Below, one piece after another: positions 34,749-62,383 of a DNA stretch of 64,000 nt; within the stretch, counting starts at the first letter, position 1; each line of letters opens with the position of its first letter. Under the pieces are notes generated by a model, which worked only from the letters and a program-made list of their open reading frames with translations, searched no databases and had not been told where the DNA came from. Both the position numbers and the translations under genes were made by a program. The stretch is taken from positions 25,073 to 89,072 of the IMG/VR virus record IMGVR_UViG_3300027816_000087, one strand, 5' to 3'. Origin of the DNA: a virus.

Positions 34749-34753
34749 ATTAG

Positions 34754-42300: not shown

Positions 42301-43938
42301 AACTTTATATTCCCTCATATTATTTAAAATACCTTTAGAAATAATTGATTTATTTCCTTCTCTTGAACCTCTAAGAATTTCATAACCAACAATTGATTCA
42401 ATTGGATTACCGTTTTCGTCTAAAGGATGCTGTATATTATTAAATTGAACACCTAAAATTGTTATTGTATTACCAGAATTACCAAAATGATTTAATAATG
42501 GGTTTACTGTTATATCAGGAAATTTATGATGTCTAATTGGTTTACCACATAACTCACCCCATATATCTGGTCTATCAGCAGGGTATCTTTCTGTAGATTC
42601 CCAATATCCCATTCTACCTGATGCAACCACTTTACCTCCATCACTTAGCTTATAAGCTGTTGTTGAATCAATACTTCCTGTATTATATACTTGCCATTTT
42701 TTCATTTTAACACCACTTGCTGTTTCAAAAACATCAGTGTTTATAACAAATGATAAATCAGATGATACTGATTCTCTACCTGGAATATGATATGACTCAG
42801 AGCGTTCTCCTGTATTATAAATCCATCTTATAAAAAAAGAATATTGTTCATCTCTTAAATAACCAGTATTGTTGCCACCTTTTATATAATAAGAAGCTGG
42901 ATATTCAACAGCCACCCAACTAGTTTTAATTTCATTTGCTAAAGGTTGATAATTAAACTTAAACTTACTATATGTACCTACACGCAATAAATAGTTATTA
43001 ACAGAAAACATTGCATCTGTTTTCTCAACAGGTTCAGATCTAAATACAACATCTGAAATTGGAACTGTAATGTATTCAGGGTCCCATCTATCTACATATA
43101 TTCTACCTTGAGATGTAGAATAATACCCTATTCTTTTAGCAACGGATTGTTGATTTATATTAGCTACAATAACAAGTTCAAATTCGTCAAATGATTGATC
43201 TATTTCTTTTATTTCAAGAATAAGAGATGAACTTACATTTTCATGAGTAAATAATCCCTGCACCTCAGATAAACCAATGTAGTCAGTTACCTTCACTTGA
43301 TTTATTGTATACGCTATACAAGCTTGGTAAGATCCATTTGGTAGTGTACCTGCTATATTACCAGCTTTAATATCAATACAAGGATATTTAATTAAAGAAA
43401 CAATTCTTATAGCTTCACAATCTAACTCAGTTGTAAATTCTTTAACTATACAATCATTTACTACCTTTTCTGTATATTTAAAAGGAATATCATCAATATT
43501 TAAACTACGAGTGGGATTCAACCCATCATCCCAATAAATCATTTTATCACAATCAAATCTATCTCTAAAAACACCTGTTATAAGATTTGTTGTTTTAAAA
43601 TTAAGACAATCACTATTTATTATTTTTCTATAAGAACATTCTGATTCATCAAATATTCCTATTTCAGATTTTATATTATTAGTTGTAAATACAACCCATC
43701 TATCTCCTTCTATATGAATAGACCCAATATAAGTATATGGAAGTTGAACACAAAATAAATTAGAAGGTTCGTTACCAATAACTCCTACATTACCTTCATA
43801 AGAATTATTAACAGCATTACGCGCATGTGTGTACAATCCTTCTCCTACAAAAGATTCATTGTAATCTTTAACCATTCCTTTTGTAAAGGAATTTGTACTA
43901 GTTAAAGGATTGCTACCACCTTGTTCTTGTTTAGCCAT
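39391..43938 (-). CDS. Tail stabilization / muzzle protein (P22 gp10-like, crAss type)
   Basis: 1515 aa, beta-rich; N-terminal NSFTKGMVKD...ARNA, central GYLRDEQYSFFI, GGDTYI and YGSCQN, late WISFHDW; follows the ring-protein genes. Confidence 0.75.
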   Translation of the reverse strand: MAKQEQGGSNPLTSTNSFTKGMVKDYNESFVGEGLYTHARNAVNNSYEGNVGVIGNEPSNLFCVQLPYTYIGSIHIEGDRWVVFTTNNIKSEIGIFDESECSYRKIINSDCLNFKTTNLITGVFRDRFDCDKMIYWDDGLNPTRSLNIDDIPFKYTEKVVNDCIVKEFTTELDCEAIRIVSLIKYPCIDIKAGNIAGTLPNGSYQACIAYTINQVKVTDYIGLSEVQGLFTHENVSSSLILEIKEIDQSFDEFELVIVANINQQSVAKRIGYYSTSQGRIYVDRWDPEYITVPISDVVFRSEPVEKTDAMFSVNNYLLRVGTYSKFKFNYQPLANEIKTSWVAVEYPASYYIKGGNNTGYLRDEQYSFFIRWIYNTGERSESYHIPGRESVSSDLSFVINTDVFETASGVKMKKWQVYNTGSIDSTTAYKLSDGGKVVASGRMGYWESTERYPADRPDIWGELCGKPIRHHKFPDITVNPLLNHFGNSGNTITILGVQFNNIQHPLDENGNPIESIVGYEILRGSREGNKSIISKGILNNMREYKVVESPTIKGLYQNYPYNDLRPDSYITSVEQDGKNGPKNDKPNSPKSTAYRKDVFSFHGPEVAFSNPFLNPNEIKIYQELYGEAKGRFEVPYLHPKFKQITNDLDTALDIFASAVATIQAVAAIAGGLTYQIGGDSPLPVQNIGIPYVIAEGVSGGIATIATAGAIIANSIFAGAYTLLFGVKTYKEQSLAMALALMPFRQFAAQYNSHGFYSESQTNIQGNMRREIIDARYIDSSIQQFTAQYQVNNINRSRFVVLEVGNTIDNPSSVVDNSRFTIGDINTDYNKSVTSNICSYYGALKLSIPSQYGQLESVEQLPISTCIEPTIASTTSRLTSNVLFGGDTYINRFTEKNTMFFFSTWMQGEPDGSEFNYTLYPAIPYPRYWINNQKYIGLFAEKASELRSLDKVENANFFYLNKGYFYLFNSGVRDFFVESEINLAYRDWEDDINARHYDINSFTDLSGMFRSDIIVAGNYYKYDYSLSVSKLFNNNVSWASLLPRDYDPIVSSTCFSYQPNKVIYSLPQQQESKKDNWRVFLTNNYKEFPTPVTSIKSVNKTGALFMMKQSSPLQFLGVEELKLDATNTKVTIGDGGLFTGTQQLQAIVNADDSYEYGSCQNRNSAISTRKGVFWVSQNQGKIFQYIGQLNEISNSGLKWWFAKYLPSRLVEKFSNYKLFDNPIEGVGVQCTYDNVNEVFYITKKDYIPIRDNIVLADDGITFLSGRAKISLKDTNYFEDISWTASYDTKSQTWISFHDWKPTALLPSKTHFMSVNTNSIWKHNVRCDNYCNFYNKDYPFEIEFISSTGQTVTSVRNVEYMLEVYNYYNDCRDRFHVLDENFDQAIIYNSEQISGLLNLTIKPKNNPLALISQPTINFDSIDIYFSKEEQKYRFNQFWDITKNRGEFSSTGVVPMFTTKGNGYEYPINQDYVNYGKNPLERKKFRHNINRVFLRKTASGKNKMLFKLSNEKLLISNR

Positions 43939-44292: not shown

Positions 44293-45150
44293 CTATAATC
44301 CTCCGTATGATTTAAACATATCGTAGTACTTATAATATTGTGCTTTTCTATTAGTTTCCCACAACTGTTGCATCTCTTCAAAATTAGGCGTGTTAACAAT
44401 AGTAAGAGCATTATTTCTAGCTGGTCTCATACGTTGCTCAATTAACTGCATTCTCTGAACAACATCTTCACCATTAATATATAAATTTTCAAGAATACGT
44501 TGTTTTAGAGCATACTCATAGTATTCATTTATAACAGGATGATCCAAAACTAATAAGTTTCCATGATCATCTTCTAATGCTCCTTGATATGATATAAAAA
44601 CATTTCCTTTATCAAGATTTGTGTAAATAAATCCATTTTTAATATATCCTGTAGGAAAGCTATTATCTAAAGCATCTGTTCTACCAGTAGTTGCAACAAT
44701 CTTAATATCTACAAATTGCTTGTATGTTCTAACTTCTTGCTTACGTTTTTCTATCACTTGTACATAAATCTTCTCACCATTCTGACATTCTTGTACATAT
44801 GTTGCTTCACATTCACATCCTGTATTACATCCACATTTAGGACAACTATCCATTATTACATTTTCAGTATGTCTACCATGTAATACTGGATCTCTAAGCG
44901 TATACTCTCCACAAAGTTTAGCATAATTGAGAACATAAAAATCATCAGGAAGTTTCATCTTCTTACTTTCAATCTCTAACACCTTCTCTTTTGTACCATG
45001 AATTCTAAGTCCTAAATCATAACTTACCCTTTGAGCCACCTTAATTAATTGTCCTGGCTCAATCATACCTTCTGTATTAAACATTGTAAAATCTGTAATC
45101 ACCTCTGCAAGAAGCTGATCAAACGTGCGATATTTTAATTCTGTCTTCAT
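44293..45150 (-). CDS. Tail ring / tubular protein
   Basis: 285 aa; KLPDDFY, GYIKNGFIYTN...GNVFISY, DDHGNLLV pattern and position upstream of the muzzle gene as for crAss-like ring proteins; contains a CPKCGCNTGCEC insertion. Confidence 0.6.
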   Translation of the reverse strand: MKTELKYRTFDQLLAEVITDFTMFNTEGMIEPGQLIKVAQRVSYDLGLRIHGTKEKVLEIESKKMKLPDDFYVLNYAKLCGEYTLRDPVLHGRHTENVIMDSCPKCGCNTGCECEATYVQECQNGEKIYVQVIEKRKQEVRTYKQFVDIKIVATTGRTDALDNSFPTGYIKNGFIYTNLDKGNVFISYQGALEDDHGNLLVLDHPVINEYYEYALKQRILENLYINGEDVVQRMQLIEQRMRPARNNALTIVNTPNFEEMQQLWETNRKAQYYKYYDMFKSYGGL

Positions 45151-45155
45151 AGATA

Positions 45156-45830
45156 TTAGCGAGTTAAGCTTTGTTTATCGTTATCAGTATCAGCAGGAAT
45201 TTGAAGCATTGTTCCTAAATCTTTAAATACTTGAGATTCAATCTCACCCCATAAATAATCAGGTACATTAAAACTCATATCTTGTTTTTGCATGCAAAAA
45301 TCATCTTTACATGTAAATTGACTAATATCATCTTCAAATATTCCTTCTATCATAACAGCATCCCAATCAAGATTAGGAAAATATAAATAATCATTCATGT
45401 ACCAAAAATACTTAGTCTTATTATACTTAGCATTCTTAGATTTAGAACTATAAACGTATGTAGAAGGAAGAATAGGTTGAAGACGTTCTGATCCATCTAT
45501 TGAACTAACACTTCTAATAAGTGGCCCCCAATATCCCTGAAGAAAAACAGGAAGTTTTTCTTTTGTTCTTTTAATTGTGCAATTAGAAGTAATACCTGTA
45601 CATTGAGCTTCCACTTTATCAACTTCTATAAGCTCAACAAAATCAAGTGTTTGAATAACAGCAGAAAAAGAAAGAAGTTTACTTTTAGAATCTTCACGCT
45701 TCATTAACCATTTAGCATGCTTAAGAACAAAACTATAAATAACACGATCAGTTAGCAAGGCATCTTGTCTAACTGCTTTTACTTGAGTACGAATTCTGGA
45801 GCATACATCTCCTATTGTTACTTTAGCCAT
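45156..45830 (-). CDS. Tail ring protein
   Basis: 224 aa; LTDRVIY, RTKEKLP, YFWYMNDYLY, IEGIFED and C-terminal PADTDND resemble crAss-like ring proteins. Confidence 0.6.
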   Translation of the reverse strand: MAKVTIGDVCSRIRTQVKAVRQDALLTDRVIYSFVLKHAKWLMKREDSKSKLLSFSAVIQTLDFVELIEVDKVEAQCTGITSNCTIKRTKEKLPVFLQGYWGPLIRSVSSIDGSERLQPILPSTYVYSSKSKNAKYNKTKYFWYMNDYLYFPNLDWDAVMIEGIFEDDISQFTCKDDFCMQKQDMSFNVPDYLWGEIESQVFKDLGTMLQIPADTDNDKQSLTR

Positions 45831-47858: not shown

Positions 47859-47888
47859 AAAAAAAAGCCCTCCCTAGAAAAGGAGGGC
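47859..47888 (-). terminator. Intrinsic terminator
   Basis: Minus strand GCCCTCC-loop-GGAGGGC followed by a run of T. Confidence 0.8.
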
Positions 47889-47942: not shown

Positions 47943-48641
47943 TTAATTTACTACTACTACAGGAGCGGTAGTAGTTGGTGTTGTAGGATTATAATCAGGT
48001 CCACAAGAACATGCTGATTCTAATCCAGTATCAAGAGGTATATCACCATTATCAACAATTTCATCCCACGTAAATAATGGAAGTAAATAATAAGGATTAA
48101 CAACTTGAATAGTTGCATCATATATTTTTACTTGCATTTTTTTTGCAATAGAAGGTACTGTTTTAAAACAAAAAACTCTTGTAGAAACATTTTGATTATT
48201 TTGTGTAAACACTGTAATATTTGATATTAGCCCATTTAAAGAAACACTTTCTAATCCAGCAGTGTACTGAGAAAAAAGAGTAAAATTTGTAGTTGCACCA
48301 TCTAATCCTTCATCAGTAACAGAAGTAGTAAATTCATAAAAAACTCCATCAATTACTATACCTAAAATTTGTACTGTTTCATTTGGATCTTCTAAAGTAT
48401 TATCATTACTTTGAACATTATAATAAAATAAATAACAAGTAAGTTCTTCTAATCCATCTAGATCGACACAATCTGTTTGTAGTAGATCTTTATCAGTAGC
48501 AGCTACTAATGTAGCACCAGGAGGTAATACAAAAGAATTACCTGCATTTAATGTAATAGATACATATGTAGGAACACATGTTGTAGTGCTTGTTGTTGGT
48601 GTAGGAACACCTACAGAAGCATATGGATTAGGAATAGACAT
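47943..48641 (-). CDS. Putative virion accessory protein with Thr/Pro-rich termini
   Basis: 232 aa acidic, beta-rich; PTPTTSTTT at the N-terminus and PTTPTTTAP at the C-terminus. Confidence 0.55.
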   Translation of the reverse strand: MSIPNPYASVGVPTPTTSTTTCVPTYVSITLNAGNSFVLPPGATLVAATDKDLLQTDCVDLDGLEELTCYLFYYNVQSNDNTLEDPNETVQILGIVIDGVFYEFTTSVTDEGLDGATTNFTLFSQYTAGLESVSLNGLISNITVFTQNNQNVSTRVFCFKTVPSIAKKMQVKIYDATIQVVNPYYLLPLFTWDEIVDNGDIPLDTGLESACSCGPDYNPTTPTTTAPVVVVN

Positions 48642-48644
48642 ATA

Positions 48645-49925
48645 TTAACAAGTTTTATATGTAATAGTTACAGTATCAGTAGCCTTAATTTCACAACAAG
48701 TATTTTTACTAGGATTGATTGTCCATTGAACACACTGAATACATTCATTAGTACCATTTGTAAAACACAACTCTGCTTTTACTGTAATTGGTGAAGTTAA
48801 TAACAAACCTGGACCTCCTAAATCAATATCAACCCAACCAAAATTAGAAGTACTATCTAATACACCATTTGTATTTGTAGGATAGTCAATATATCTAAAA
48901 GTTATAGGATATGAATATTCAAATCCTGTAGCGTCTATAAACGTTAATTCATTAATTCCATCTGGATTTCCAGGTTGACCACAATCATAAAATCCAACTG
49001 GAAGTGAACTTTTAGAACGGAAATTAAGTTGAAGAATTTCAGAATTATCAGAAGACCAACGTTGATAAAAATCAATTTTAATTGCATCACATGTAGGTGC
49101 ACAACAATTATCAAGAATAGATCTTACAGCAGCTCTAATGTCACAAACAGTAAGCCAAAGATTATTAATAGATTGAGCTAAGTTTTGAGGACTTACAATC
49201 CATGTACCTGCTGGTCCTACAAGTGAATTCATATTTTGAGATGAATCCGTTAATTGTTTTTGAATACCTAAATTTTCACATATTTGACCAGAGGCAATTG
49301 CTATATCTCCTGCTTCCCCAAGAGCATCTTTTATATCACAAAATTCATTCTCTAAATATTCTACTAAATCATCTAAAACTTTATCAGTTCCTGTTAAACA
49401 ACTATTTAACTCAGGAAGTGGTGTTGGTACTTGTGCTTCTAAATCTGTAACTCTTTCATCAAGACTATCAATATCTAATGTATTTTGATTGGTTTGAAAA
49501 CTTATGTCACATATTTTATCTGCTAAATTTTTAGTATAAACACTAAGAACATCATTAGATAAAGAAAAACAACTTGGATATATAAGAGTAGGTTCTATGT
49601 AAGGATCTGGAGGAGTAGGAATACCCTCTACTATTTCAGAAAGACAACAAACTTTGCTAATTAAAAGTTCAAAAATATTAGCAAGTGTTTTGCTTGGTTC
49701 TGGTGTAGTTTGACAAACCTTTACAATACAAGTTAAATCAACATCAGTAACACCAATGTTTTCTTTTAACTCACATATTTCTAAAGCTAACTTATAAGTA
49801 ACATCTGAAACAGTGTCTCCTGTACATAGATTAATACACTCAATATCAGGACCCTGCCAAATCACGCAATTAGATGATATTGGAGAACAGTTTTCTTTTG
49901 AAAGATTGGATTTAGAAGGTATCAT
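48645..49925 (-). CDS. Cys-rich putative structural protein
   Basis: 426 aa; SSNCVIWQGPDIECINLCTGDTVSDV domain (shared with three nearby ORFs), short coiled coil, beta-rich C-terminus. Confidence 0.6.
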   Translation of the reverse strand: MIPSKSNLSKENCSPISSNCVIWQGPDIECINLCTGDTVSDVTYKLALEICELKENIGVTDVDLTCIVKVCQTTPEPSKTLANIFELLISKVCCLSEIVEGIPTPPDPYIEPTLIYPSCFSLSNDVLSVYTKNLADKICDISFQTNQNTLDIDSLDERVTDLEAQVPTPLPELNSCLTGTDKVLDDLVEYLENEFCDIKDALGEAGDIAIASGQICENLGIQKQLTDSSQNMNSLVGPAGTWIVSPQNLAQSINNLWLTVCDIRAAVRSILDNCCAPTCDAIKIDFYQRWSSDNSEILQLNFRSKSSLPVGFYDCGQPGNPDGINELTFIDATGFEYSYPITFRYIDYPTNTNGVLDSTSNFGWVDIDLGGPGLLLTSPITVKAELCFTNGTNECIQCVQWTINPSKNTCCEIKATDTVTITYKTC

Positions 49926-50023
49926 AACTTATTGAATATCAATGATGTACGATAATAATATAAAATGTAGACAAGTTGTTTACAATATAATATATGAAAA
50001 AATTAGCAATTTTTCAAATATAT

Positions 50024-50650
50024 TTACATATATTTCTCATAAAGTGTTTTTGCAATAACTACTTTTTCTTTAAGGGGTCTAGCCATAAAATGGTATATGA
50101 ACTGACCATCATTTGAATTAATATCGTATAACCAATATGAATTTATTTCATTCATTGGAAAAACATCCATAGGAACACCACTTTCATACATCTTTGTTAT
50201 AACAGTTTGTTCCCATGGAAAACCAAATTTTTGATGCTGCATGTCTGTATTTGATTTTTCAATACATTTTTCTAATATAGAAACAGCATCTTTACTAGCA
50301 ATAAAACAACCAGTATTTATCAAATCTCCACCATTCCACCCATTTTCTGAAAAAGCAATAGATGTTTTCATTTTATCAATTACATCTTCAATTTTTTTAT
50401 TTTGATTTATTACAACAGCATCAGCATCTAAAAAGAAAATATGTGTATAATTTTCTTTTTCCAAAAGATCTTTGGTATAAAATATCTTACTCCAAGCAGG
50501 CGCGTGTGTTTTAGTATTTATAGCATCTAAATTTAAATAATCATAATTATGTTTTTTACAATATTCTTTATTAATAGGACAAGAATATTGAGAATAATCA
50601 TGTATTTCAGGACTTGTAACCTGTAAAAAACAAATATTTACTTTATACAT
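50024..50650 (-). CDS. Glycosyltransferase, GT34 (GMA12/MNN10)-like
   Basis: NKEYCKKHNYDY, WSKI, FFLDADAVVIN (DxD), INTGCFI, WEQ and FIYHF motifs. Confidence 0.85.
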   Translation of the reverse strand: MYKVNICFLQVTSPEIHDYSQYSCPINKEYCKKHNYDYLNLDAINTKTHAPAWSKIFYTKDLLEKENYTHIFFLDADAVVINQNKKIEDVIDKMKTSIAFSENGWNGGDLINTGCFIASKDAVSILEKCIEKSNTDMQHQKFGFPWEQTVITKMYESGVPMDVFPMNEINSYWLYDINSNDGQFIYHFMARPLKEKVVIAKTLYEKYM

Positions 50651-51558
50651 GATTTTTTACCTGTTTCTAGTAATTGCTCTGTATATTTATAAGAACAAAA
50701 TTTATTGCTTACATTCTCTAATTTCACCTCATCATATGGAAGTTTATTAATATACGCTGCTTTAAAGAATAAATCTTTCCTATCTTCTGTTACACCTGCA
50801 TTGTGAAATATTGAACATTGTTCCCATCTATGTACAAAACATGTAGCCCAACAAAAATCTAATCTTTTATCTACTTTTGTTGTATGTCCAAATTTCCATG
50901 CGTTCCACAATAAAGACCACATTCCAGCTGTCCATTTTTGTATAGGGTGTCCTTCTCCTTTATAATTAGGTTCTTGTTCGCAAAAATGTTTATATAGCTT
51001 TATAGAGTCTTTCTCCACCTTATCCCAATATTCATAAGTGGTGTTTTTTACAATATGTTGAGCGCCACCAGAATCTGCATTTCTTTCTTTAGGAATAGCA
51101 GGATCTATTTCCATTACACGACACATATCTAAGTATACATCTTCACCTTTCGTTAAAATATACTGCGTACCTATATACCCCACTGTGTCACTTAAATACC
51201 AAGTGTCCCCTTTTTCCATATCGCTAAAATCAATAGGACGTGTAAGTATAATATCACAATCATGAAGAAATAAAGCTTCTTTTTCAAGTTCAGGATGTGC
51301 TTGAATATGTTGCTTCATCATATTAAAATAAATAGAAGGAATATAAAACTGCGTACTTCTTGTATCCTTATAAAAGAAAAAACATACATCACTATAATGC
51401 ATTTGTAGTTTTTTCCATGTTTTTGGAACTACATCATAATATGCACATAGAATATGTATGTCATTAGGATTAACACCATTTTTAATAAAGTTGTTAATCA
51501 TCACTTCAACCTGCCACGTATAGTATGGAATAGCAGGTTGCGCACATACAAATTTCAT
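50638..51558 (-). CDS. GT-A glycosyltransferase resembling HPAT/SERGT1 peptidyl O-glycosyltransferases
   Basis: DxD motif LHDCDIILTRPI; YYTWQVEVMINNF and KWTAGMWSLLWNA resemble the YxxWQ and WxxEMY motifs I recall from plant SERGT1/HPAT; late IFH motif. Confidence 0.65.
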   Translation of the reverse strand: MKFVCAQPAIPYYTWQVEVMINNFIKNGVNPNDIHILCAYYDVVPKTWKKLQMHYSDVCFFFYKDTRSTQFYIPSIYFNMMKQHIQAHPELEKEALFLHDCDIILTRPIDFSDMEKGDTWYLSDTVGYIGTQYILTKGEDVYLDMCRVMEIDPAIPKERNADSGGAQHIVKNTTYEYWDKVEKDSIKLYKHFCEQEPNYKGEGHPIQKWTAGMWSLLWNAWKFGHTTKVDKRLDFCWATCFVHRWEQCSIFHNAGVTEDRKDLFFKAAYINKLPYDEVKLENVSNKFCSYKYTEQLLETGKKSCIK

Positions 51559-51592
51559 AAATGTTGGTTTTTATAATATATAAAGTTAATAA

Positions 51593-52642
51593 TTATGATA
51601 TACATGCATCATATCCTATAATTTCATAGTTATTTCCACCAATAGTAACTACTTGAGGACTTGATGTAATAGTAACTCCCCCTACTACAAGACTTTTCAA
51701 ATTTAATGATAATGATCCACTCACCCAAGAATTTATTAAATCAAATGTTGTAGATGGAGAACCTGCTGTTAACGTAAACGAAGATACATTAAAATCAGGA
51801 CCATTTGTTGGTAAATTACAAGACATATTTGCATGTTGAGAAACAACTCCTGTAAATGATATATTAGAAAGCGTTGTTCCACTTAAAACATCAACTTGAA
51901 GATAAATAAATGGATCACCAAATTCAAATTTAATTTCAATTACAGCTTGAATAGGTTGATTTGATGTAGTTGTTGTAGTAGAACAATTTTCTAAAACAAC
52001 ACTACTTAAATACCCATCTTGACCAATTGTTGGTACAGGTGTCCAAATAGGAAAATTTATACCATCTGAAATAGGATATTGAGCTGTTGAATTTAATGTT
52101 TGCAGTATACCTCCCTGAGAAATACATTCATTAACCCATTGTGTTCCATTATAATAAACTCTACGTAATGGAGAATTAGATAAAATATATTGAGGTCTGC
52201 CATTTATTTGTGGAGCATTTCCAGCTGTAGGAAGTTGTAAATTATCAAAACAAAGTGAATTTCCAATACACTCGTATGATATAGAAAAACAAATATTAGG
52301 AGAAATAGTAGTAGTACTAGTAGTAGATGTACTAGTACTAGTAGTAGATGTACTAGTAGTAGTAGTAGTAGTGGTGGTTGTTGTTGTAGTGGTACTAGTA
52401 GTAGTAGTAGTAGTAGGTAATATATATGTTGCTATATTATCTAGTTCGCAACAATCATTGCATAATAGACCTGTAGATTCAATAAAAATATTTTGTGAAT
52501 TAGGATTTATAGTTAATACTACACCATCTAATAATTGTTGTTTTGTTACCTCAGAAGGAGATACTAAACCAAAATCATCTTTAACTAAAAATGTTGGTCC
52601 TAAACCACTACCTAAAGAATTTATTTGAAAAAATATTTGCAT
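51593..52642 (-). CDS. Mucin-like poly-Thr protein, putative virion surface protein
   Basis: 349 aa; three beta-rich domains joined by a ~35-residue pure Thr/Ser tract and a shorter STTTTTS tract. Confidence 0.65.
   Translation of the reverse strand: MQIFFQINSLGSGLGPTFLVKDDFGLVSPSEVTKQQLLDGVVLTINPNSQNIFIESTGLLCNDCCELDNIATYILPTTTTTTSTTTTTTTTTTTTTSTSTTSTSTSTTSTTTISPNICFSISYECIGNSLCFDNLQLPTAGNAPQINGRPQYILSNSPLRRVYYNGTQWVNECISQGGILQTLNSTAQYPISDGINFPIWTPVPTIGQDGYLSSVVLENCSTTTTTSNQPIQAVIEIKFEFGDPFIYLQVDVLSGTTLSNISFTGVVSQHANMSCNLPTNGPDFNVSSFTLTAGSPSTTFDLINSWVSGSLSLNLKSLVVGGVTITSSPQVVTIGGNNYEIIGYDACIS
52306..52414 (-). repeat. Imperfect trinucleotide (ACT/ACA)n tract encoding poly-Thr/Ser
   Basis: (agt)n runs with a duplicated gtactagtagtagatgtacta unit. 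Confidence 0.9.
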
Positions 52643-52656
52643 TATACATTATATTA

Positions 52657-52908
52657 TTAACAACAGTCACCTGTCACTTTGTGAAATAAAGATGATAGAG
52701 TATCTAATAAATTATTATTATATATCAGTAAACACTCTGATTGTATATTATGTACAACACATTGTAAATCAATAATTTGTTCACAATTATTAACATCACA
52801 AGAAACTGAAATTGTTGTTGTGCTAGTAGTGGTGGTTGTTTTTTTACAACCACATGGTGTGCTACAGCAAGAGTTACAACAACTATATGTATTTGTAGGA
52901 CAATTCAT
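52657..52908 (-). CDS. Small Cys-rich, Thr-tract protein
   Basis: 83 aa; CCNSCCSTPCGC, TTTTTSTTT and a degenerate CVVH...C domain. Confidence 0.6.
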   Translation of the reverse strand: MNCPTNTYSCCNSCCSTPCGCKKTTTTTSTTTISVSCDVNNCEQIIDLQCVVHNIQSECLLIYNNNLLDTLSSLFHKVTGDCC

Positions 52909-53900
52909 TAATTAACTATTGTAGTGGTAGTAGTTGTTGGACAAGTACCAGCTTTTGTTTTAAAAGTAACAAATGGATCTAAAGGAGCAGTTATTATCCA
53001 ATTTATATAATCTGTCGTTTCTAAATTTTCTTCTAGTGTATACCCAACTGGATCACCATTGCTAGCAGTAAGCTCATATTTACCTGTAAATATATTCCAT
53101 TCTATTTTAAAAACTTCACGTGGCGTAACAATACATCCTATATATGAATGTTTTAGTACTAAAGGTTGAGATGGAAGACTTGCAATAGTATCATATTGTG
53201 ACTTGATTGTAACTTGAGAAGAATCATCTTTAGTAGTATATAATACACATAATTCTTCAGGACAACACTCTCTTGTTGTAACAAGTATAGAATCAACACC
53301 ATACATTGTCCAAGAAAGTTCAGGTTGTGTTAATATGTCTCCTTTTAATGGAGCAATAGGATGTTCACTATCTGATTCTAAATATGCTAAAGGAAACGCA
53401 AGATAAGTTGCTAAATATAATTCCCATCTTTCATCTACAATAGACCATCTAATAGTATAATCAATTGAGTTATAAGTAAATGAATAGCTTTCTTTACCAT
53501 TTACAAAAGCACCCGATATTATTTCTTGTACAGTAAAATTACAATTATTTTCTTGATATAATGTAAAACATAGATTGTTTTGAGGTATAGTAGTTGTAGA
53601 TGTTGTTGTAGATGTAGAAGTTGTTGTTGTAATAAAATCTATAATAGCACTTCCGTACTGACAACTACAATTATCAGGAGTTATTTTAGCTATTATCTTA
53701 TCAATAATATCTTTTATTGTATCTCCTTTTTTCACTCCATAACACTCATTATCTTCTCCATCATATATAATACATTCAGAAGCATAAATGTCACTACATA
53801 TAGTAATACATGGTTGCTCTGCTACAGGACTACATGTAGTAGTAGTTGTGCAGTTGCAATCGCAAACATCTAAACAATTATTACATTTATTACAAGACAT
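52908..53900 (-). CDS. Cys-rich protein with three Thr tracts
   Basis: Likely start MSCNKC at 53900 (the track's GTG start overlaps the upstream gene); SECIIYDGEDNECYGVKKGDTI domain; CFTL...NGK...YS...RW...HPI domain shared with 51593-52642. Confidence 0.65.
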   Translation of the reverse strand: MSCNKCNNCLDVCDCNCTTTTTCSPVAEQPCITICSDIYASECIIYDGEDNECYGVKKGDTIKDIIDKIIAKITPDNCSCQYGSAIIDFITTTTSTSTTTSTTTIPQNNLCFTLYQENNCNFTVQEIISGAFVNGKESYSFTYNSIDYTIRWSIVDERWELYLATYLAFPLAYLESDSEHPIAPLKGDILTQPELSWTMYGVDSILVTTRECCPEELCVLYTTKDDSSQVTIKSQYDTIASLPSQPLVLKHSYIGCIVTPREVFKIEWNIFTGKYELTASNGDPVGYTLEENLETTDYINWIITAPLDPFVTFKTKAGTCPTTTTTTIVN

Positions 53901-53910
53901 TGAAAAATAT

Positions 53911-54501
53911 TTATGCAACTGGATAATAGGTATCCACATAAGTTTCTAAACTACCTACAAATGTTCCATTTGGTCTACATGATACAACAAGTCCTTGTTC
54001 TAATATTTCTAGCATGTATTCTTCAGCAACAAGAGGAGTTTTTGTTTTTAATATTTCTACAAGTTCACAAAATCCAAAATTTTGATTAATTGTATTATAT
54101 TCAAAAAGACCTGTAGCAGAACCTGAAATATAAAACCATTCTTTTAATGCTGTTGAGTTTGTATGTTCAAGTAATTCATTGATACACTTTGCTGTTGTAT
54201 TTGTATTACAACATACTCTATATAAAATAGTATCATTAATTAAAACATCTGCCTTAGAATAAAGATTTACACAACATTGATCAAAATTAAATCCTATATT
54301 TGCATCATAATCAGTAATAAGTGACACATCACCAAACAATAAATACTCTTGAGAACAATAATCAGGACAACACATGTTTATTGTATTAGGAAAAATATGT
54401 CCAGCTTTAAATACATTATATGGTGTTAAACCAGGATCTGTAGATAATTGATAATCTACATATTCAATAAAATATTCTATAGGACTTGAGCAGCAACTCA
54501 T
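53911..54501 (-). CDS. Cys-rich paralog family member 4
   Basis: PIEYF...CCPD...CCVN...ILEQGLVVSC...SLETY pattern shared with the three upstream ORFs. Confidence 0.65.
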   Translation of the reverse strand: MSCCSSPIEYFIEYVDYQLSTDPGLTPYNVFKAGHIFPNTINMCCPDYCSQEYLLFGDVSLITDYDANIGFNFDQCCVNLYSKADVLINDTILYRVCCNTNTTAKCINELLEHTNSTALKEWFYISGSATGLFEYNTINQNFGFCELVEILKTKTPLVAEEYMLEILEQGLVVSCRPNGTFVGSLETYVDTYYPVA

Positions 54502-55229
54502 GATTCAATATATTTTAAAAATGTTTCAACTGAAGAAATAAACATTCTACCACCTGTACAATCTATAACAATACCTTTGCCAAGTATAGTAATAAACTCT
54601 TCTACAAAACATTGTAGCCCAAAATAATCTTTCATGTTTTCAAATATTCTACATACTTGAGTTTCACTATTTATTGATCCTTGTTCTACAATACCTATAT
54701 CCAATAGTGCTGTATAAAGATTTAATAAACTAAATATGCCCAAATCAGATTCTACTTCGCAATTATTTTGAACAAAATAATCAAAAATAGAATCGGCACA
54801 CTCTGTAAAATTATTACAGCAATTTGTTTTATAAAAGTCAGATGCAGGTGATGATAATGTTGCAAAGTAACTACCATAAAGATTAATACAACATACAGTA
54901 TCTGAATCACTTGATAAATTAGCTTCAAGTGGTGGAGATATTCCAAAAATTGCTTCAATAAAGATTTCATAGGTTTCTTTAGATGCAAATATATATCTAC
55001 AATCAGGGCAGCATGTTCCACAGCTATTTAATACAAAACCATTGTCTAGAACTTCTACTAACCCTTCTAATTTTGTTAAACCATTAACCTCAGAAACTTG
55101 TGTAGCTATTTCAAATAACTGATCAATTGGATTAATACACGGAATTGTTGTTGTTGTAGTACATTCTACAAAACAACAATCTGTCGTTGTACTTGTACAA
55201 GAATTTGTATTTATATTATTTTCTAACAT
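54498..55229 (-). CDS. Cys-rich paralog family member 3
   Basis: CINPIDQLFE...LDNG...CCPDC...LLDIGIVE...ILGKGIVIDC...SSVETFLKY. Confidence 0.65.
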   Translation of the reverse strand: MLENNINTNSCTSTTTDCCFVECTTTTTIPCINPIDQLFEIATQVSEVNGLTKLEGLVEVLDNGFVLNSCGTCCPDCRYIFASKETYEIFIEAIFGISPPLEANLSSDSDTVCCINLYGSYFATLSSPASDFYKTNCCNNFTECADSIFDYFVQNNCEVESDLGIFSLLNLYTALLDIGIVEQGSINSETQVCRIFENMKDYFGLQCFVEEFITILGKGIVIDCTGGRMFISSVETFLKYIES

Positions 55230-55240
55230 TTTATATAATA

Positions 55241-55915
55241 TTATCCAACTGCTTCTGCGTATTGAATATAGGTTGCTATAGAACTAATAATTATACCATT
55301 TTCTCCACATTCTACAATAATACCAGTAGTTAGTAAACGATCTAAAAATTCTGTTTTGCTTTCTCCAATATTTAAATTACAATATTTTTTAAAAAATTCA
55401 GATATGTAACATAACCCTGATGTACTTTCATTAGTGCATTTATCATAAAATGCTCCATATTCAATTATACCCTTATCTAAAAGTCTATCTAAAACATTAG
55501 TAGAACCTTCTGGTTTATTTAACCAACAATATAATTTATTAAAACAATCTTGAAATTGTGTATCACAACAATTATTTGGAATATTATTTGGTGGTACAGA
55601 AGATACAACTTCACGATATTTTAACCAAGCTTCATTAGATCCAAACAAATTTAAACAACACTCTGCATCAAAACCAAAAAATTCAAGATATTGTAAAAAA
55701 CTTTCTACCTCTGTTAAAACATAAATTCCACAATCTGAGCAACAAATATTACAATTTTGAATAAATAATCCTTGATCTAAAATTGTAATTAATGCTTCTG
55801 AAAATGAAACTTTATTTTCTAAACCAAGTGTAGCCTTGTAAGCATTCTCAAAAAGATATTCTAGAGGATGTTTACAAGGTACACATGGTTCTATAACTGG
55901 TGTTGAACACTGCAT
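55241..55915 (-). CDS. Cys-rich paralog family member 2
   Basis: CVPCKHPLEYLFE...ILDQG...CCSDC...LLDKGIIEYG...LLTTGIIVEC. Confidence 0.65.
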   Translation of the reverse strand: MQCSTPVIEPCVPCKHPLEYLFENAYKATLGLENKVSFSEALITILDQGLFIQNCNICCSDCGIYVLTEVESFLQYLEFFGFDAECCLNLFGSNEAWLKYREVVSSVPPNNIPNNCCDTQFQDCFNKLYCWLNKPEGSTNVLDRLLDKGIIEYGAFYDKCTNESTSGLCYISEFFKKYCNLNIGESKTEFLDRLLTTGIIVECGENGIIISSIATYIQYAEAVG

Positions 55916-55940
55916 TGTGTTTTATTCTTTAATGTATTTA

Positions 55941-56702
55941 TTATACAGTAGTAGTAGTGGTAGTTGTAGTATTTGAAATTGCTGGAACTGGATTAAATGC
56001 ATTAATAGCTTCTCCGTATTTTAACCAAGTTTCAGTGGATGCAATATGTGTTTCTCCTTCAAAACAAGATATTGTTATTCCTTTATCTAAAAGAATATCA
56101 ATAAGTTGAGCTCTTGAACCTGCTAAAGAAATATTCTCATATCTCTCTAAAAGATCAACTAATTTACAAATACTACTAGATACAGCACCTGTGCAATTAT
56201 TTTGTATTGCACCGTATTCAACAATTCCTTTGTCTATGATTCTATCAATTGAGTCTTGTGAATTTCTTGCTGTTTCTGTAAACCAACATATTAATTCATC
56301 TTTACATTCATTAAATCCATTACAACACTCTATAATAGAATATCCAGATTGGTTACCAGCTTCTGCAAATTCAGCTAATTTTAAAAATGTTTCTGTTGAA
56401 GTAAACGTATTAGTGCAACAAGCACCAGGTTGATCATAAAAATCTGGCCAATTTACTATAGCTTCTATTAATTTCAAAAATGTTTCAACACTAGAGAAAG
56501 AATAAACACCATCGCAATCTGGACAGCATAATTTACATGATGGAATACTTATTCCTTTATCTAATAGTCTATCAATTGCTTCATCAAAACCTGTTCTATT
56601 ATTGGTACCAGTTGTTGTAACATAAGCTAATTCAAATAGATATTCAAAAGGATGAATACATGGAACACATGCAGTTGTAGGGGGAGGGGTAGCGCAAAGC
56701 AT
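55941..56702 (-). CDS. Cys-rich paralog family member 1
   Basis: CVPCIHPFEYLFE...LLDKG...CCPDC...IIDKGIVEYG...LLDKGITISC; ends in NTTTTTTTV. Confidence 0.65.
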   Translation of the reverse strand: MLCATPPPTTACVPCIHPFEYLFELAYVTTTGTNNRTGFDEAIDRLLDKGISIPSCKLCCPDCDGVYSFSSVETFLKLIEAIVNWPDFYDQPGACCTNTFTSTETFLKLAEFAEAGNQSGYSIIECCNGFNECKDELICWFTETARNSQDSIDRIIDKGIVEYGAIQNNCTGAVSSSICKLVDLLERYENISLAGSRAQLIDILLDKGITISCFEGETHIASTETWLKYGEAINAFNPVPAISNTTTTTTTTV

Positions 56703-56733
56703 AATTTTAAGTTTTAAGTTTTATAAAAAGTTT

Positions 56734-57066
56734 TTAAGGACAATCGTCACATATTTTAAATAATGTTGTTGTAGTGGTTGTAGGTGCTATTGTAGTAGTT
56801 GGAGCTATTGTTGTTGTACTTGTTGTTGTGCTTGTAGATGTTGTTGTTGTACAACCACCATAAATAACATCTAATAGTTTATTAATAACAACAGTTAAAT
56901 TATCACCAGATTCAACACCATAACACTCTAAGCAATCACCTGTATATATTACACAACTGCTGTAATAAACCTCTTGACATCCTGTACCTACACATGAAAC
57001 ACAAGGTGCTCCAGGAATTACATAAGATGAACATTTTTCACAAGTATTATTACAGCTATTTTTCAT
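56734..57066 (-). CDS. Small Cys-rich protein with a long mucin-like tail
   Basis: 110 aa; SSCVIYTGDCLECYGVESGDNL domain then TTTTSTSTTTSTTTIAPTTTIAPTTTTTT. Confidence 0.65.
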   Translation of the reverse strand: MKNSCNNTCEKCSSYVIPGAPCVSCVGTGCQEVYYSSCVIYTGDCLECYGVESGDNLTVVINKLLDVIYGGCTTTTSTSTTTSTTTIAPTTTIAPTTTTTTLFKICDDCP

Positions 57067-57113: not shown

Positions 57114-58517
57114 TTAAAAACCTACTTTTTGTCTAATTCTTAAACTATCATTTTGTATTGTGGTACATCCAAGTGAATTAGGACCTATCCACCATATCCC
57201 TTCTCTAAAATATGAATTACCCATAAGTGGAGCAAATGATCCACTTCCTCCATTATATTCTGTAAGAAATGTTCCTGTTGAAGAACATTGAATTTGGTGA
57301 TATAGTCCTAATGTATGACCTATTTCATGAGAAGTTGCTTCCCAAGTGTATTTCTGATTGTAAGAAAGAGCCTTAGGAAAAACAAAACCAGGCACTTCTC
57401 CAAAAGAATAACTTCCTCCTCCCCAATCAATTCCACCAATATAAGCCACCCCACCTGTTCCTCCATACCACTCATTGTATTCTGTTATCACCATTCTTTG
57501 TCTTTTAAATGGATTGGCTTTTAGATATATTGTAGAATCTGTTGTTATAGTGATAGGAAACGAAGCATAGTCTTTCTTCACCTCAGCCACTATATTGTTT
57601 ATTTCTACAGCACTCAATCCTGATGGTGTGGCATAAAATGGTATTCCATTATTCCAATACACTGTATTTACACTGTGCCCATCAAAATCTAAATATATCA
57701 CCCAAGAATATATTACAGCAGGAGGATCTACAGGATCACAAGCATCCCCTTTTCCATCCCCATCACTATCCATTTGATTTGAATTAGGATTAAGAGGACA
57801 ATTGTCAATATTGTCTGCTACACCATCGCCATCAGCATCAAGTATGGGTGTTGGATCACAAACATCACCAATACCATCACTATCGCTGTCTTTTTGATCA
57901 GTGTTTGGTGTAGTGGGACAGTTATCATTTACATCAGGTATACTATCTTTATCAGTGTCTGTATTATTAAAACTATCACAAACATCCCCTATGCCATCTC
58001 CATCAACATCCTTTTGGTCAGGATTAGGTGTATTTAAACAATTATCGTTTGTATCAGGAACACCATCACCATCCACATCTGAAGGAGGAACAACATCACA
58101 AACATCACCTATACCATCTGCATCTGTATCTGTTTGTGTAGGATTGAATACATTTGGACAATTGTCCACTGCTGTTAACACCCCATCCTTATCAGGATCA
58201 TCATTAACAACATCACATGCATCTCCTTTACCATCACCATCTATATCAGCTTGATCAGGATTAAATGTCCCAGGACAATTGTCATTAACATCTCTTACAC
58301 CATCACCATCTGTATCTCTTCTACCAGGAGAGTTTCCTCCTCCTTTTCTAAAAGCTTCTTCTTGTTCTTCTCTAGACATCCTTGCTACAGTGTTATATTT
58401 TCCATCAAGAAAATCACACGTTTCAGGAAGTTTTTTATCTTCTAAAACATCATTTGTTTTTCTACATGTTACAATAAACATTGAAAACAGTAAAACAAAA
58501 AAGATCTTTTTTAACAT
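57114..58517 (-). CDS. Putative lipoprotein: thrombospondin type-3 repeats plus metzincin metalloprotease
   Basis: Signal MLKKIFFVLLFSMFIVT-C; five DxDxDxxxxxxDNC...DxDxDGxGDxCD units; YLDFDG, HEIGHTLGLYH and Met-turn PLMG. Confidence 0.85.
   Translation of the reverse strand: MLKKIFFVLLFSMFIVTCRKTNDVLEDKKLPETCDFLDGKYNTVARMSREEQEEAFRKGGGNSPGRRDTDGDGVRDVNDNCPGTFNPDQADIDGDGKGDACDVVNDDPDKDGVLTAVDNCPNVFNPTQTDTDADGIGDVCDVVPPSDVDGDGVPDTNDNCLNTPNPDQKDVDGDGIGDVCDSFNNTDTDKDSIPDVNDNCPTTPNTDQKDSDSDGIGDVCDPTPILDADGDGVADNIDNCPLNPNSNQMDSDGDGKGDACDPVDPPAVIYSWVIYLDFDGHSVNTVYWNNGIPFYATPSGLSAVEINNIVAEVKKDYASFPITITTDSTIYLKANPFKRQRMVITEYNEWYGGTGGVAYIGGIDWGGGSYSFGEVPGFVFPKALSYNQKYTWEATSHEIGHTLGLYHQIQCSSTGTFLTEYNGGSGSFAPLMGNSYFREGIWWIGPNSLGCTTIQNDSLRIRQKVGF
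57735..58315 (-). repeat. Five tandem TSP3-like Ca-binding repeat units (~39 aa each)
   Basis: Repeated DNCP...NPDQxDxDGDGxGDxCD visible in protein and in DNA (atcacaaacatc...ataccatc). Confidence 0.85.
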
Positions 58518-58528
58518 AGGTTATAGAT

Positions 58529-59407
58529 TTAAGGTCGTTTCTCTGTAGCTAAACACACTTCACCTTGCATTCTGATAAGTCTAGCCATATCATTAAAAGA
58601 TATAAAAGCTCTACCATTTTGTCCCCATTTTCTACCCCAACTATTCTTAATTCTAAATAGTCTTCTTTTTGTATCAACACCATTTATAACATAAGCATGA
58701 CCCCCTGATAAAGGACCAGAAACTGAAATAATACCTGTAGTTCTATTAGGAAAAAACATATTTCTATACCACAATGTACCAACAACAACAGGACCTATAT
58801 TTAATACAGTGGAAATCAATGTATTAATATTAGTAGTCCAAAGATAGTTTTGTATAAAACCTAAGTTTTGAAGTATTTTAGCACCTGCTCTAACAGATGT
58901 ACCATTGTAGTTTTCACCTGGCCATTCATCTATTTTTTGAGCTTCTCTATAAACAGGATTAGGTTGTATAATTGGATGAGGTGTAGATGCTTGATAAAAA
59001 GGACCATCTTCTAACCAATGCACCCAAGCATATGCTACACATTCTGATGTTTGTCCTTGATCTCCCCACCACTGTTCATCATCCCAATAACGAGATGTTA
59101 GTGGTTTAGTATTACTTAAAAGACCACTATTCTCTATAAGATAATTATTATCTCTATCATCGCGCGCGTACACGCGACCCAATCCTAAATCCACTTGAGA
59201 ATGACTAAAATCATCTTCTAATGTTTGCCAATCTACAAGAGTTTTACGTATATCAAGAAGATCCCAATCTCTTGTCTTTTTACATGATTCTAAACCATAC
59301 TTCATTTCTACCATCAATTGATAGGTAGTATCAGCAAATTCTTTGTATATCTCTACCTTTTTAGCAGATAGATCTCTACAAGGTTTAGTATCTGTATTAC
59401 AATACAT
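58529..59407 (-). CDS. Papain-like (C1) cysteine protease with an unrelated N-terminal extension
   Basis: DQGQTSECVAYAW (oxyanion Gln and catalytic Cys), GPVVVG, GGHAYVING (His), IKNSWG (Asn). Confidence 0.9.
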   Translation of the reverse strand: MYCNTDTKPCRDLSAKKVEIYKEFADTTYQLMVEMKYGLESCKKTRDWDLLDIRKTLVDWQTLEDDFSHSQVDLGLGRVYARDDRDNNYLIENSGLLSNTKPLTSRYWDDEQWWGDQGQTSECVAYAWVHWLEDGPFYQASTPHPIIQPNPVYREAQKIDEWPGENYNGTSVRAGAKILQNLGFIQNYLWTTNINTLISTVLNIGPVVVGTLWYRNMFFPNRTTGIISVSGPLSGGHAYVINGVDTKRRLFRIKNSWGRKWGQNGRAFISFNDMARLIRMQGEVCLATEKRP

Positions 59408-61789: not shown

Positions 61790-62383
61790 CTACAAATAAT
61801 CTTTTATTTCATGGTCAAGAAGACGCATTGCTATCTTATCTTCTCCAAATGCATTAAGCTGATCTATCCAGTTTTGCATTTTACCATGCTCCTCATTTTG
61901 TTCTCTAAGATAGTGAAGAGCAAGCTCATATAACATATGGGAACCATCTTTAAGAGCATGATTGGCTAACTCACTACATTGATTAGTGATTTCTATCTCA
62001 TGATCAAAAGATTGTCTAATAATATCAGGAAGACCACCAAATGTTTCAGAAGGTTGTTCAAGAGAAGCTGTTGCAGGTTGAACTCCCATGTTTAAAAGAT
62101 ACTCACGAGCAATGTCAGCATGTCCTCTTTCTTCATCTGAATACTTTTTCCAAAGTTTGGCTGCATTTACATAGCCAGCATTATCTAACCAAAGAGACAT
62201 TGCTAAATAAATACGAGAAGATTGATCTTCTTGTTGTACGCGATAATTAAGAAAACTAATACAAGAATCATCAATTAAAGGATTTTTTCCTTTAATAGGT
62301 GCAGTTTTAATACCTGTTTTAATAGGTTCTGCTGTTGCAGATCCTTTTGTACTAAAAATTGTAGGGCGAGCTATTTTTTGCAT
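61790..62383 (-). CDS. Non-heme ferritin (FtnA-like)
   Basis: Ferroxidase-centre pattern QQE...IYLAMS, DEERGH, DHE, EQNEE. Confidence 0.85.
   Translation of the reverse strand: MQKIARPTIFSTKGSATAEPIKTGIKTAPIKGKNPLIDDSCISFLNYRVQQEDQSSRIYLAMSLWLDNAGYVNAAKLWKKYSDEERGHADIAREYLLNMGVQPATASLEQPSETFGGLPDIIRQSFDHEIEITNQCSELANHALKDGSHMLYELALHYLREQNEEHGKMQNWIDQLNAFGEDKIAMRLLDHEIKDYL

Follow-up and report, generated by a model that had tools for sequence, protein, structure and literature searches.

We analysed a 64,000-nucleotide (nt) stretch of viral DNA, hereafter the window (positions 25,073 to 89,072 of IMG/VR record IMGVR_UViG_3300027816_000087), with a focus on region 47943-57066, in which the genes of a predicted glycosyltransferase (GT) of 306 amino acids (aa) and of an overlapping, GT34-like second enzyme lie among genes whose products carry runs of threonine (Thr). 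The family of the 306-aa enzyme accompanies Thr stretches in widely differing phages, for which reason we think it probable that this phage coats proteins of its own particle with sugar. The region holds 12 open reading frames (ORFs), all on the minus strand and either overlapping or separated by gaps of 0 to 98 nt. In the direction of transcription these are:

56734-57066, minus strand: 110-aa cysteine (Cys)-rich protein, candidate acceptor, with an N-terminal module, the 14-residue motif TTTTSTSTTTSTTT, TTTIAP repeats (about 56764-56850) and TTTTTT
55941-56702, minus strand: 253-aa Cys-rich protein, candidate acceptor, one of four tandem paralogues, with a C-terminal T8 tail
55241-55915, minus strand: 224-aa paralogue of the 253-aa protein (37% identity), without a Thr run
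54498-55229, minus strand: 243-aa paralogue, candidate acceptor, with N-terminal TSTTT and TTTTT runs and flanking Cys
53911-54501, minus strand: 196-aa distant paralogue of the same family as the 253-aa protein, without a Thr run
52908-53939, minus strand: 343-aa protein, candidate acceptor, with a Cys-rich N-terminal module, a TTTTSTSTTTSTTT linker, a C-terminal domain and a T6 tail
52657-52908, minus strand: 83-aa protein, candidate acceptor, 15.7% Cys, with the run TTTTTSTTT
51593-52642, minus strand: 349-aa protein, directly upstream of the gene for the 306-aa enzyme, with the longest tract (36 Thr/Ser residues, 52307-52414)
50638-51558, minus strand: 306-aa GT-A fold glycosyltransferase (predicted), phrog_4417, with D100-x-D102 and H252 conserved; proposed initiating protein O-glycosyltransferase
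50024-50650, minus strand: 208-aa GT34-like glycosyltransferase, Pfam PF05637, with a DAD motif; overlaps the 306-aa gene by 13 nt; proposed glycan extender
48645-49925, minus strand: 426-aa Cys-rich protein with the shared N-terminal module, long helices and a C-terminal beta-sandwich, without a Thr run
47943-48641, minus strand: 232-aa protein encoded at the end of the unit, 14.2% Thr; one run, TTSTTT, adjoins a Cys close to the N-terminus, and NPTTPTTTAP lies close to the C-terminus

The source record comprises 89,072 bp at about 30% G+C and is estimated to be 69% complete. The region is flanked by ring, muzzle and giant cargo genes of a Crassvirales structural module: tail ring proteins 1 and 2 (Pfam CrAss_Ring_1 and CrAss_Ring_2) were found at 44293-45830 and the muzzle protein (crAss_MUZ) at 39391-43938, and the record contains a run of ORFs of 851 to 5259 aa. 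The 12 genes sit in the same minus-strand block, between the tail genes and two peptidase-like genes, and would form the 3' part of the structural-gene operon of a crAss-like phage. No match to GenBank phages was obtained by megablast of the region.

The 306-aa protein is confidently predicted to adopt a GT-A fold

The 306-aa protein matched phrog_4417, annotated as being of 'unknown function', with an E value of 1e-71. A search of a word-indexed protein collection returned 1442 proteins of this family at E ≤0.001, all unnamed or called 'hypothetical', and an exhaustive search gave 862 clusters at 50% identity. Neither the 306-aa protein nor 28 close members had a Pfam hit at E values up to 10, and PDB sequence searches with the 306-aa protein and with a profile of 53 diverse members (32-52% identity) returned only noise, such as kinases and TAL-effector repeats.

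An AlphaFold2 model built from 28 sequences reached a mean predicted local distance difference test score (pLDDT) of 94.2 and a predicted template modeling score (pTM) of 0.91. From this model, which forms a single Rossmann-like alpha/beta/alpha domain, the protein can confidently be assigned to the GT-A fold glycosyltransferases. The best solved matches were AgtA of Dictyostelium (Z = 14.9), glycogenin (14.8), the UGGT catalytic domain and LgtC (both 14.7), followed by WbbM (14.4) and an Anaerococcus GT8-family protein (14.2); GlyE of the pneumococcal serine-rich-repeat pathway (12.8) and the capsid-glycosylating A64R of PBCV-1 (11.4) ranked lower. Altogether, 107 chains matched at Z ≥8, with the top GT8/GT24/GT77 matches spanning 210-244 residues. 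Foldseek gave 290 matches at E ≤0.001 (best about 1e-6). All those listed were glycosyltransferases, in agreement with the earlier note on this DNA, made from the sequence alone; the nearest solved structures belong to GT8/GT24/GT77.

The sequence HDCDII places D100 and D102 directly after strand 96-99, and both residues were invariant in the 28 close members. Among the 53 diverse members, D102, Q167, H252 and K266 were invariant, and D100 was kept in at least 90%. The protein carries a motif of the DxD type, which typically holds a metal and a nucleotide sugar and would do so here. The invariance of these catalytic-type residues argues for an active enzyme, for which the nearest folds would imply retaining chemistry. 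Several enzymes of the GT8/GT24/GT77 type act on proteins or protein-bound glycans. With these and with GlyE the 306-aa protein shares the fold (Z = 12.8-14.9 over 210-244 residues), a DxD after the fourth strand and a conserved His, but sequence identity is only 8-12%, and neither the window protein nor 81 family members had a Pfam GT8 hit: the model for CAZy family GT8 (Glyco_transf_8) matched none of the 28 close members at E values up to 10 and none of the 53 diverse ones at E values up to 1. The likeness to GT8 is found at the level of the fold only.

The one Pfam family matched by more than one of the 53 diverse members was PF23452 (HPAT, GT95), which gave weak matches in two (best E = 1.3e-4). 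None was seen in the 306-aa protein and 27 closer relatives, and the PF23452 model found nothing in the phage's own record or in 14 control genomes. The label HPAT/SERGT1-type, which the enzyme had been given in the earlier note, has these two relatives on its side, whereas the window protein itself is without a match and its nearest folds are those named above.

Among 21 long family members, 8 were fused to a second Pfam glycosyltransferase domain (GT2, GT6 or GT7C). One 658-aa member (P0122), 58% identical to the 306-aa enzyme, was fused to a radical SAM and a SPASM domain, an unexpected partner.

Thr/Ser tracts are concentrated in the Cys-rich neighbours of the enzyme genes

We recorded Thr/serine (Ser) runs by a loose rule (at least four consecutive S/T residues, at least three of them T) and tracts by a strict rule (10-aa windows with S+T ≥9 and T ≥6, in all six frames). 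Loose runs were present in 7 of the 10 non-enzyme ORFs, namely those for the 232-, 349-, 83-, 343-, 243-, 253- and 110-aa proteins. Among 25 other tabulated ORFs of the window they occurred only in a 1845-aa ORF (29238-34775, minus strand), with the runs TSTST, STTSTTTT, TSTTT and TTTT; its product could be a further acceptor, or the runs could have arisen by chance in a long protein. By the strict rule, the whole 64-kb window held five tract ORFs, all on the coding strand within 51596-57066.

A Cys residue lay within three residues of 8 of the 13 runs, and the proteins of the cluster contain 2.6-15.7% Cys, against 0-2.5% in most other ORFs. These cysteines often form CC, CxxC or CCPDC motifs; metal-binding knots, or disulfides that form after lysis, seem possible. 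None of the 12 proteins had a signal-peptide-like N-terminus in a crude hydropathy check (best 10-residue Kyte-Doolittle mean ≤1.53), in which a neighbouring 467-aa protein scored 3.0.

These results largely reproduce what the earlier note had read from the DNA. Its coordinates and counts for two overlapping GT genes (50024-51558) among co-oriented genes with Thr/Ser tracts were correct, at least seven tract proteins are found if the loose rule is applied, the 36-residue run and the TTTIAP repeats are located where it had placed them, and the absence of signal peptides agrees with the hydropathy check; its description of the runs as usually next to Cys was roughly right.

Within the tracts, Thr is encoded by a mixture of ACT, ACA and ACC and Ser by codons of both families, TCN and AGY; a period of 3 is matched at just 63-78%. 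The mixed Thr codons and the use of both Ser codon families indicate that the tracts are kept at the protein level and are not simple DNA microsatellites. Furthermore, the 14-mer TTTTSTSTTTSTTT is identical in three different proteins of the genome, with copies in the 343-aa protein (53590-53631), in the 110-aa protein (56809-56850) and, outside the window, in the linker of a 276-aa protein (8091-8921 of the same record, minus strand) whose gene adjoins one for a phrog_1645 'virion structural protein'. The three copies share 31-35 of 42 nucleotides, and the Ser codon is TCT in one and AGC or AGT in the others. An identical peptide written in different codons, from both Ser families, points to selection on the peptide itself, and the recurrence of TTTTSTSTTTSTTT suggests selection for a particular acceptor pattern.

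The enzyme family and poly-Thr ORFs occur together

The association was followed in 80 viral-contig loci with enzyme relatives of 52-89% identity, where 639 kb upstream and 619 kb downstream of the enzyme were scanned. A strict poly-Thr ORF was present at 68 of the 80 loci. Over all loci, 107 tract ORFs lay upstream on the same strand, 3 lay downstream and 1 lay on the opposite strand. Where more than 1.5 kb of upstream DNA was available, 63 of 72 loci had an upstream tract ORF, and in 45 it ended no more than 100 nt from the start of the enzyme gene.

As a lineage control, 79 crAss-like loci were fetched through the neighbouring exonuclease, six of them from contigs that are also in the 80-locus set. 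Thirteen had both enzyme and tract, 63 had neither, one had the enzyme only and two had only a marginal, 10-residue tract (Fisher p = 5e-12, for loci that are not phylogenetically independent). On a FastTree phylogeny of the exonuclease, the presence of the enzyme needed at least four changes, three of them forced by well-supported branches, and the tracts followed the enzyme at each change; locus L124, for example, has both and its sister L123 neither. Within the crAss-like lineage, the enzyme is gained and lost together with the tracts. An occurrence of the GTs independent of Thr-tract genes in relatives had been named beforehand as the pattern that would speak against protein glycosylation; the counts (68 of 80 loci, and 13 with both and 63 with neither among 79) came out in favour of the idea.

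Outside this lineage, tblastn against GenBank phages gave 77 records with a family member, the majority from phages of Lactobacillus, Enterococcus, Staphylococcus, Lactococcus and Clostridium. Seven of these records were picked for diversity, and in all seven, Thr runs were found on head, tail or neighbouring proteins near the enzyme gene. In Enterococcus phage phiFL1A, the gene follows that of a major tail protein with a C-terminal Thr/Ser run of 23 residues, and a 332-aa head-region protein encoded upstream ('conserved hypothetical protein') also ends in Thr runs. Lactobacillus phage iLp84 has C-terminal Thr runs on the capsid protein, a small neighbour and the tail protein. In Clostridium phage phiCTP1, the product of the adjacent gene lacks the tract, which instead belongs to a small protein of the head region encoded about 3.4 kb upstream, and in Chryseobacterium phage MA9V-3 two ORFs with long tracts precede the gene, one being its immediate neighbour. 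In Staphylococcus phage SA2 and Arcanobacterium phage TPWB06, the tail protein has T8-T9 at its end, and a much longer tract is encoded in a different frame by an ORF overlapping the tail gene; in Enterococcus phage Planchet the tract is in an unannotated ORF that overlaps the end of the capsid gene.

These long poly-Thr ORFs (SA2, locus L087 at 3649-3927; TPWB06, L086 at 3660-3923; Planchet, L084 at 3742-3885) overlap the 3' end of a major tail or capsid gene in another frame. Judging from the arrangement of the frames, a programmed frameshift might add a long Thr tag to a fraction of the subunits in these three phages.

A rare GT34-like enzyme occupies a variable downstream slot

The 208-aa protein matched PF05637 with 33.2 bits (curated cut-off, 23; E = 5.9e-8) over 65 residues, its positions 27-91 aligning with positions 32-99 of the 238 in the profile, and it contains the sequence FLDADAVV. 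A PDB sequence search gave a weak match to AgtA (E = 0.022). Its 21 relatives in a large protein collection include 20 with a precomputed PF05637 match. The gene was absent from all 82 other loci compared, and a scan of viral contigs for the protein gave two weak partial matches. It is a rare, lineage-specific accessory that stands outside the conserved unit.

The slot downstream of the 306-aa family was examined through 89 ORFs, hand-picked from 169 as the first one to three per locus at 59 loci. At 31 of these, the next one to three ORFs included a Pfam glycosyltransferase, methyltransferase, hexapeptide acyltransferase or nucleotidyltransferase, and at 17 a glycosyltransferase (GT2, GT7C, GT11, Fringe-like or GT1) followed the enzyme. 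By its gene content, a constant first enzyme with variable partners fits the look expected of an initiator-plus-extender system.

Two claims about the enzyme pair can be judged from these data. That both genes encode glycosyltransferases is borne out by the confident GT-A prediction for one and by the GT34 score above cut-off for the other, but the GT34-like gene (missing from those 82 loci) does not belong to the conserved unit. Similarly, the proposed division into an initiating and an elongating enzyme agrees with the varied GTs and methyltransferases in the downstream slot of relatives, although the GT34-like gene itself is not conserved.

Candidate acceptor proteins have fibre-like layouts

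The 349-aa protein, encoded at the typical acceptor position in relatives, has an N-terminal part of 76 aa that is conserved in two relatives and variable C-terminal domains. It shares with the 343-aa protein, for which only 10 relatives were found, all unannotated, a layout of conserved N-terminal part, Thr linker and variable C-terminal domain, which by analogy would be typical of fibres. The 196-, 243-, 224- and 253-aa proteins are tandem paralogues, and a Cys-containing N-terminal module of about 40 residues is common to the 110-, 343- and 426-aa proteins.

Relatives of the 426-aa protein were present in 70 of 79 crAss-like loci, with or without the enzyme, and this presence regardless of the enzyme marks the protein as part of the lineage core and not of a mobile cassette. 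In a fold search of its model against viral models, the one clear relative was a protein of Virus NIOZ-UU157 (E = 4.5e-18) that is itself uncharacterised; in addition, a 'structural protein' from a Cellulophaga phage matched weakly (132 columns, E = 9.5e-4). Judging from the model, the 426-aa protein is likely a fibre-like structural protein; the fold-search matches were not enough for a firm call as a fibre.

The ten non-enzyme proteins had no match in Pfam or PHROGs, where only sub-threshold noise such as Gas_vesicle appeared. No match to cultured phages was found by tblastn of the 208-, 426- and 253-aa proteins, and in the ESM Atlas neither the 253-aa protein nor the C-terminal part of the 349-aa one had a usable match. 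The Thr-tract proteins are presumably parts of the virion, given their place in the structural gene block and their fibre-like architecture. The earlier note had them as virion appendages, a view with which block and layout agree but to which Pfam and PHROGs add no match.

Neighbouring genes

The transcription unit is closed by one further feature:

47867-47888, minus strand: strong intrinsic-terminator-like hairpin with a 9-bp stem (6 G-C pairs), followed by T8

A promoter scan performed no better than on shuffled sequence (92 found, 87.5 expected). Directly upstream of the cluster, the gene at 57114-58517 (minus strand) encodes the 467-aa protein, in which a reprolysin-like zinc-metallopeptidase motif is combined with five thrombospondin type-3 repeats (E = 9.5e-48) and an N-terminus resembling that of lipoproteins (MLKKIFFVLLFSMFIVTC). 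The gene next to it (58529-59407, minus strand) encodes a papain-family (C1) peptidase-like protein, phrog_16701. Such a pair of peptidase-like genes within a phage structural block is unusual. Interspersed with the structural genes is one for a ferritin-like protein (PF00210, E = 6e-22; 61790-62383, minus strand). At the start of the window, on the opposite strand, lie genes for a deoxynucleotide monophosphate (dNMP) kinase (PF21448; 203-835, plus strand) and a spore-photoproduct-lyase-like radical SAM protein (PF20903; 1587-2444, plus strand).

Discussion

We consider it probable that, in the cytoplasm, structural proteins of the phage receive the first sugar of O-glycans on their Thr runs from the 306-aa enzyme and that the GT34-like enzyme extends these glycans. 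The operon would make cytoplasmic, Cys-rich, fibre- or decoration-like proteins with poly-Thr(/Ser) tags. The 306-aa enzyme, using a nucleotide sugar and a divalent metal held by the DxD motif, would transfer a first sugar to the hydroxyls of the Thr runs, and the overlapping GT34-like enzyme would then add a further one. The outcome would be glycan-coated linkers and tails on particle proteins, with possible roles in shielding, adhesion or stability. The gene anatomy, the conserved motif in a GT-A fold and the tight, repeated genomic coupling with poly-Thr ORFs are the observations behind this proposal.

Several points weigh against it. A GT-A fold does not specify a protein acceptor, and LgtC and WbbM, among the nearest folds, act on lipooligosaccharide or polysaccharide. 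Poly-Thr may act simply as a flexible linker. In the window, three of the ten non-enzyme proteins of the cluster are without any Thr run, no candidate acceptor matches a known virion protein family (Pfam, PHROGs, tblastn, ESM Atlas), and the 426-aa protein was modelled with mediocre confidence (pLDDT 69.6, pTM 0.40), its C-terminal beta-sandwich being better predicted. Twelve of the 80 loci lack a strict tract. Two of these have less than 100 nt of upstream DNA; at L029 the contig end cuts the upstream ORF, which begins with a short Thr run, and at L006 the adjacent upstream ORF has short runs. The remaining eight have 2.3 kb or more of upstream DNA and are free of Thr runs on the same strand up to a distance of 6 kb. 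Because the loci are phylogenetically non-independent, raw counts overstate the number of independent observations. No biochemical or proteomic datum for any family member was found in the searchable literature.

The chief alternative takes the Thr runs for plain linkers or spacers of fibre proteins and lets the 306-aa enzyme act on a target other than protein, for example phage DNA, a lipid-linked glycan or a polysaccharide on the host surface, with the pair travelling together only as parts of exchangeable tail-fibre cassettes. The lipooligosaccharide and O-antigen enzymes LgtC and WbbM among the nearest folds would suit such a target, as would the eight loci that have ample upstream DNA and no tract, and the dNMP kinase gene at 203-835 is of a type that is common in phages with modified nucleotides and is associated with modified DNA in some phages. 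However, the coupling persists where there is no fibre cassette, since in Gram-positive siphophages the gene follows that of a Thr-ended major capsid or tail-tube protein. The strong bias of strand and order (107 tract ORFs upstream against 3 downstream) and the joint change of both traits between sister loci (L124 and L123) also speak against this explanation, which we regard as unlikely.

A second alternative concerns who begins: the GT34-like enzyme or a host enzyme might initiate, leaving the 306-aa enzyme to extend or, without catalysis, to assist Thr-rich proteins in the manner of a chaperone. The order of action is our reading of the gene pattern, and DxD-type motifs occur in both enzymes. 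Yet it is the 306-aa family that is the constant partner of the tracts, while the GT34-like gene is absent from the 82 compared loci and has just 21 relatives, and the invariant catalytic-type residues of the 306-aa family argue for activity; we find this version quite improbable. That the association is an artefact of composition or annotation, with ACN repeats arising by slippage in AT-rich DNA and ORFs that are not real proteins, has the period-3 arrays reported by Tandem Repeats Finder at 52306-52416 and 56764-56850 in its favour, but it is largely refuted and very hard to sustain given the restriction of the tracts to a single frame and strand (1 of 111 lies on the opposite strand), mixed Thr codons with both Ser codon families, flanking domains of the tract ORFs that are conserved in relatives, and only two marginal tracts among 65 enzyme-free relatives of the same composition.

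Glycosylation of structural proteins by a phage's own enzymes has a precedent. Virion glycosylation of mycobacteriophages was reportedly the subject of work by Freeman et al. (Cell Host Microbe, 2023). In a further study, phage-encoded glycosyltransferases of mycobacteriophages were proposed to modify the phages' own structural proteins in the cytoplasm, and the cases cited there have glycans at the C-termini of capsid and tail-tube subunits (PMC12619734). These are the same positions as those of the Thr runs in cultured phages with the 306-aa family. The system described here, known from genes alone, differs in that the proposed acceptor is a recognisable poly-Thr tag, which also occurs as an internal linker in many Cys-rich proteins. 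PMC9863714 concerns host wall glycosylation only. While virion glycosylation by phage enzymes is already documented, in mycobacteriophages, a description of this enzyme family or of phage poly-Thr tags did not turn up in the literature covered, which mostly excludes subscription journals, and the combination is apparently undescribed.

Likeness to other systems is partial. Plant and algal HPAT enzymes (GT95, PF23452) start O-glycans on repetitive hydroxy-amino-acid tracts of structural proteins, but their acceptor is hydroxyproline, whereas Thr is proposed here. Compared with GT34 enzymes (GMA12/MNN10, xyloglucan xylosyltransferase type), the 208-aa protein is short, soluble and without a membrane anchor. 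The designation 'mucin-type' in the earlier note does not carry over beyond analogy: mucin-type O-glycosylation relies on GT27 polypeptide GalNAc-transferases, neither enzyme matched GT2- or GT27-type Pfam models, and 'mucin-like' fits the tracts only.

If the 306-aa enzyme does initiate O-glycans on Thr runs, a broader view opens, on which our judgement is evenly balanced. Poly-Thr may be a portable phage glycosylation tag, recognised by one large GT-A family (862 clusters) that starts the glycan, with swappable partners diversifying it, and glycan-coated virions may be common across tailed phages of Bacteroidota, Bacillota and Actinomycetota instead of being a peculiarity of mycobacteriophages. 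On this broader view, and with the same divided confidence, the Thr runs would have been appended to or inserted into capsid, tail-tube or fibre proteins. In the present phage, the tag would have spread to about eight Cys-rich proteins and converged on the 14-residue acceptor TTTTSTSTTTSTTT; how many Cys-rich proteins are tagged, the 14-residue motif that recurs and the rare partner of GT34 type are features specific to this window.

Were poly-Thr glycosylation to hold, the tag and its enzyme would constitute a simple, genetically encoded pair for the cytoplasmic O-glycosylation of chosen proteins, and the hypothesis is directly testable with phages that are already cultured. Many phages, including well-studied ones of Enterococcus, Staphylococcus, Lactobacillus and Lactococcus, would then have sugar-coated particles that have not been looked for, and this coat would have consequences for how stable phages are, how they adsorb and bind mucus, how the immune system recognises them in phage therapy and how cryo-electron microscopy maps are read.

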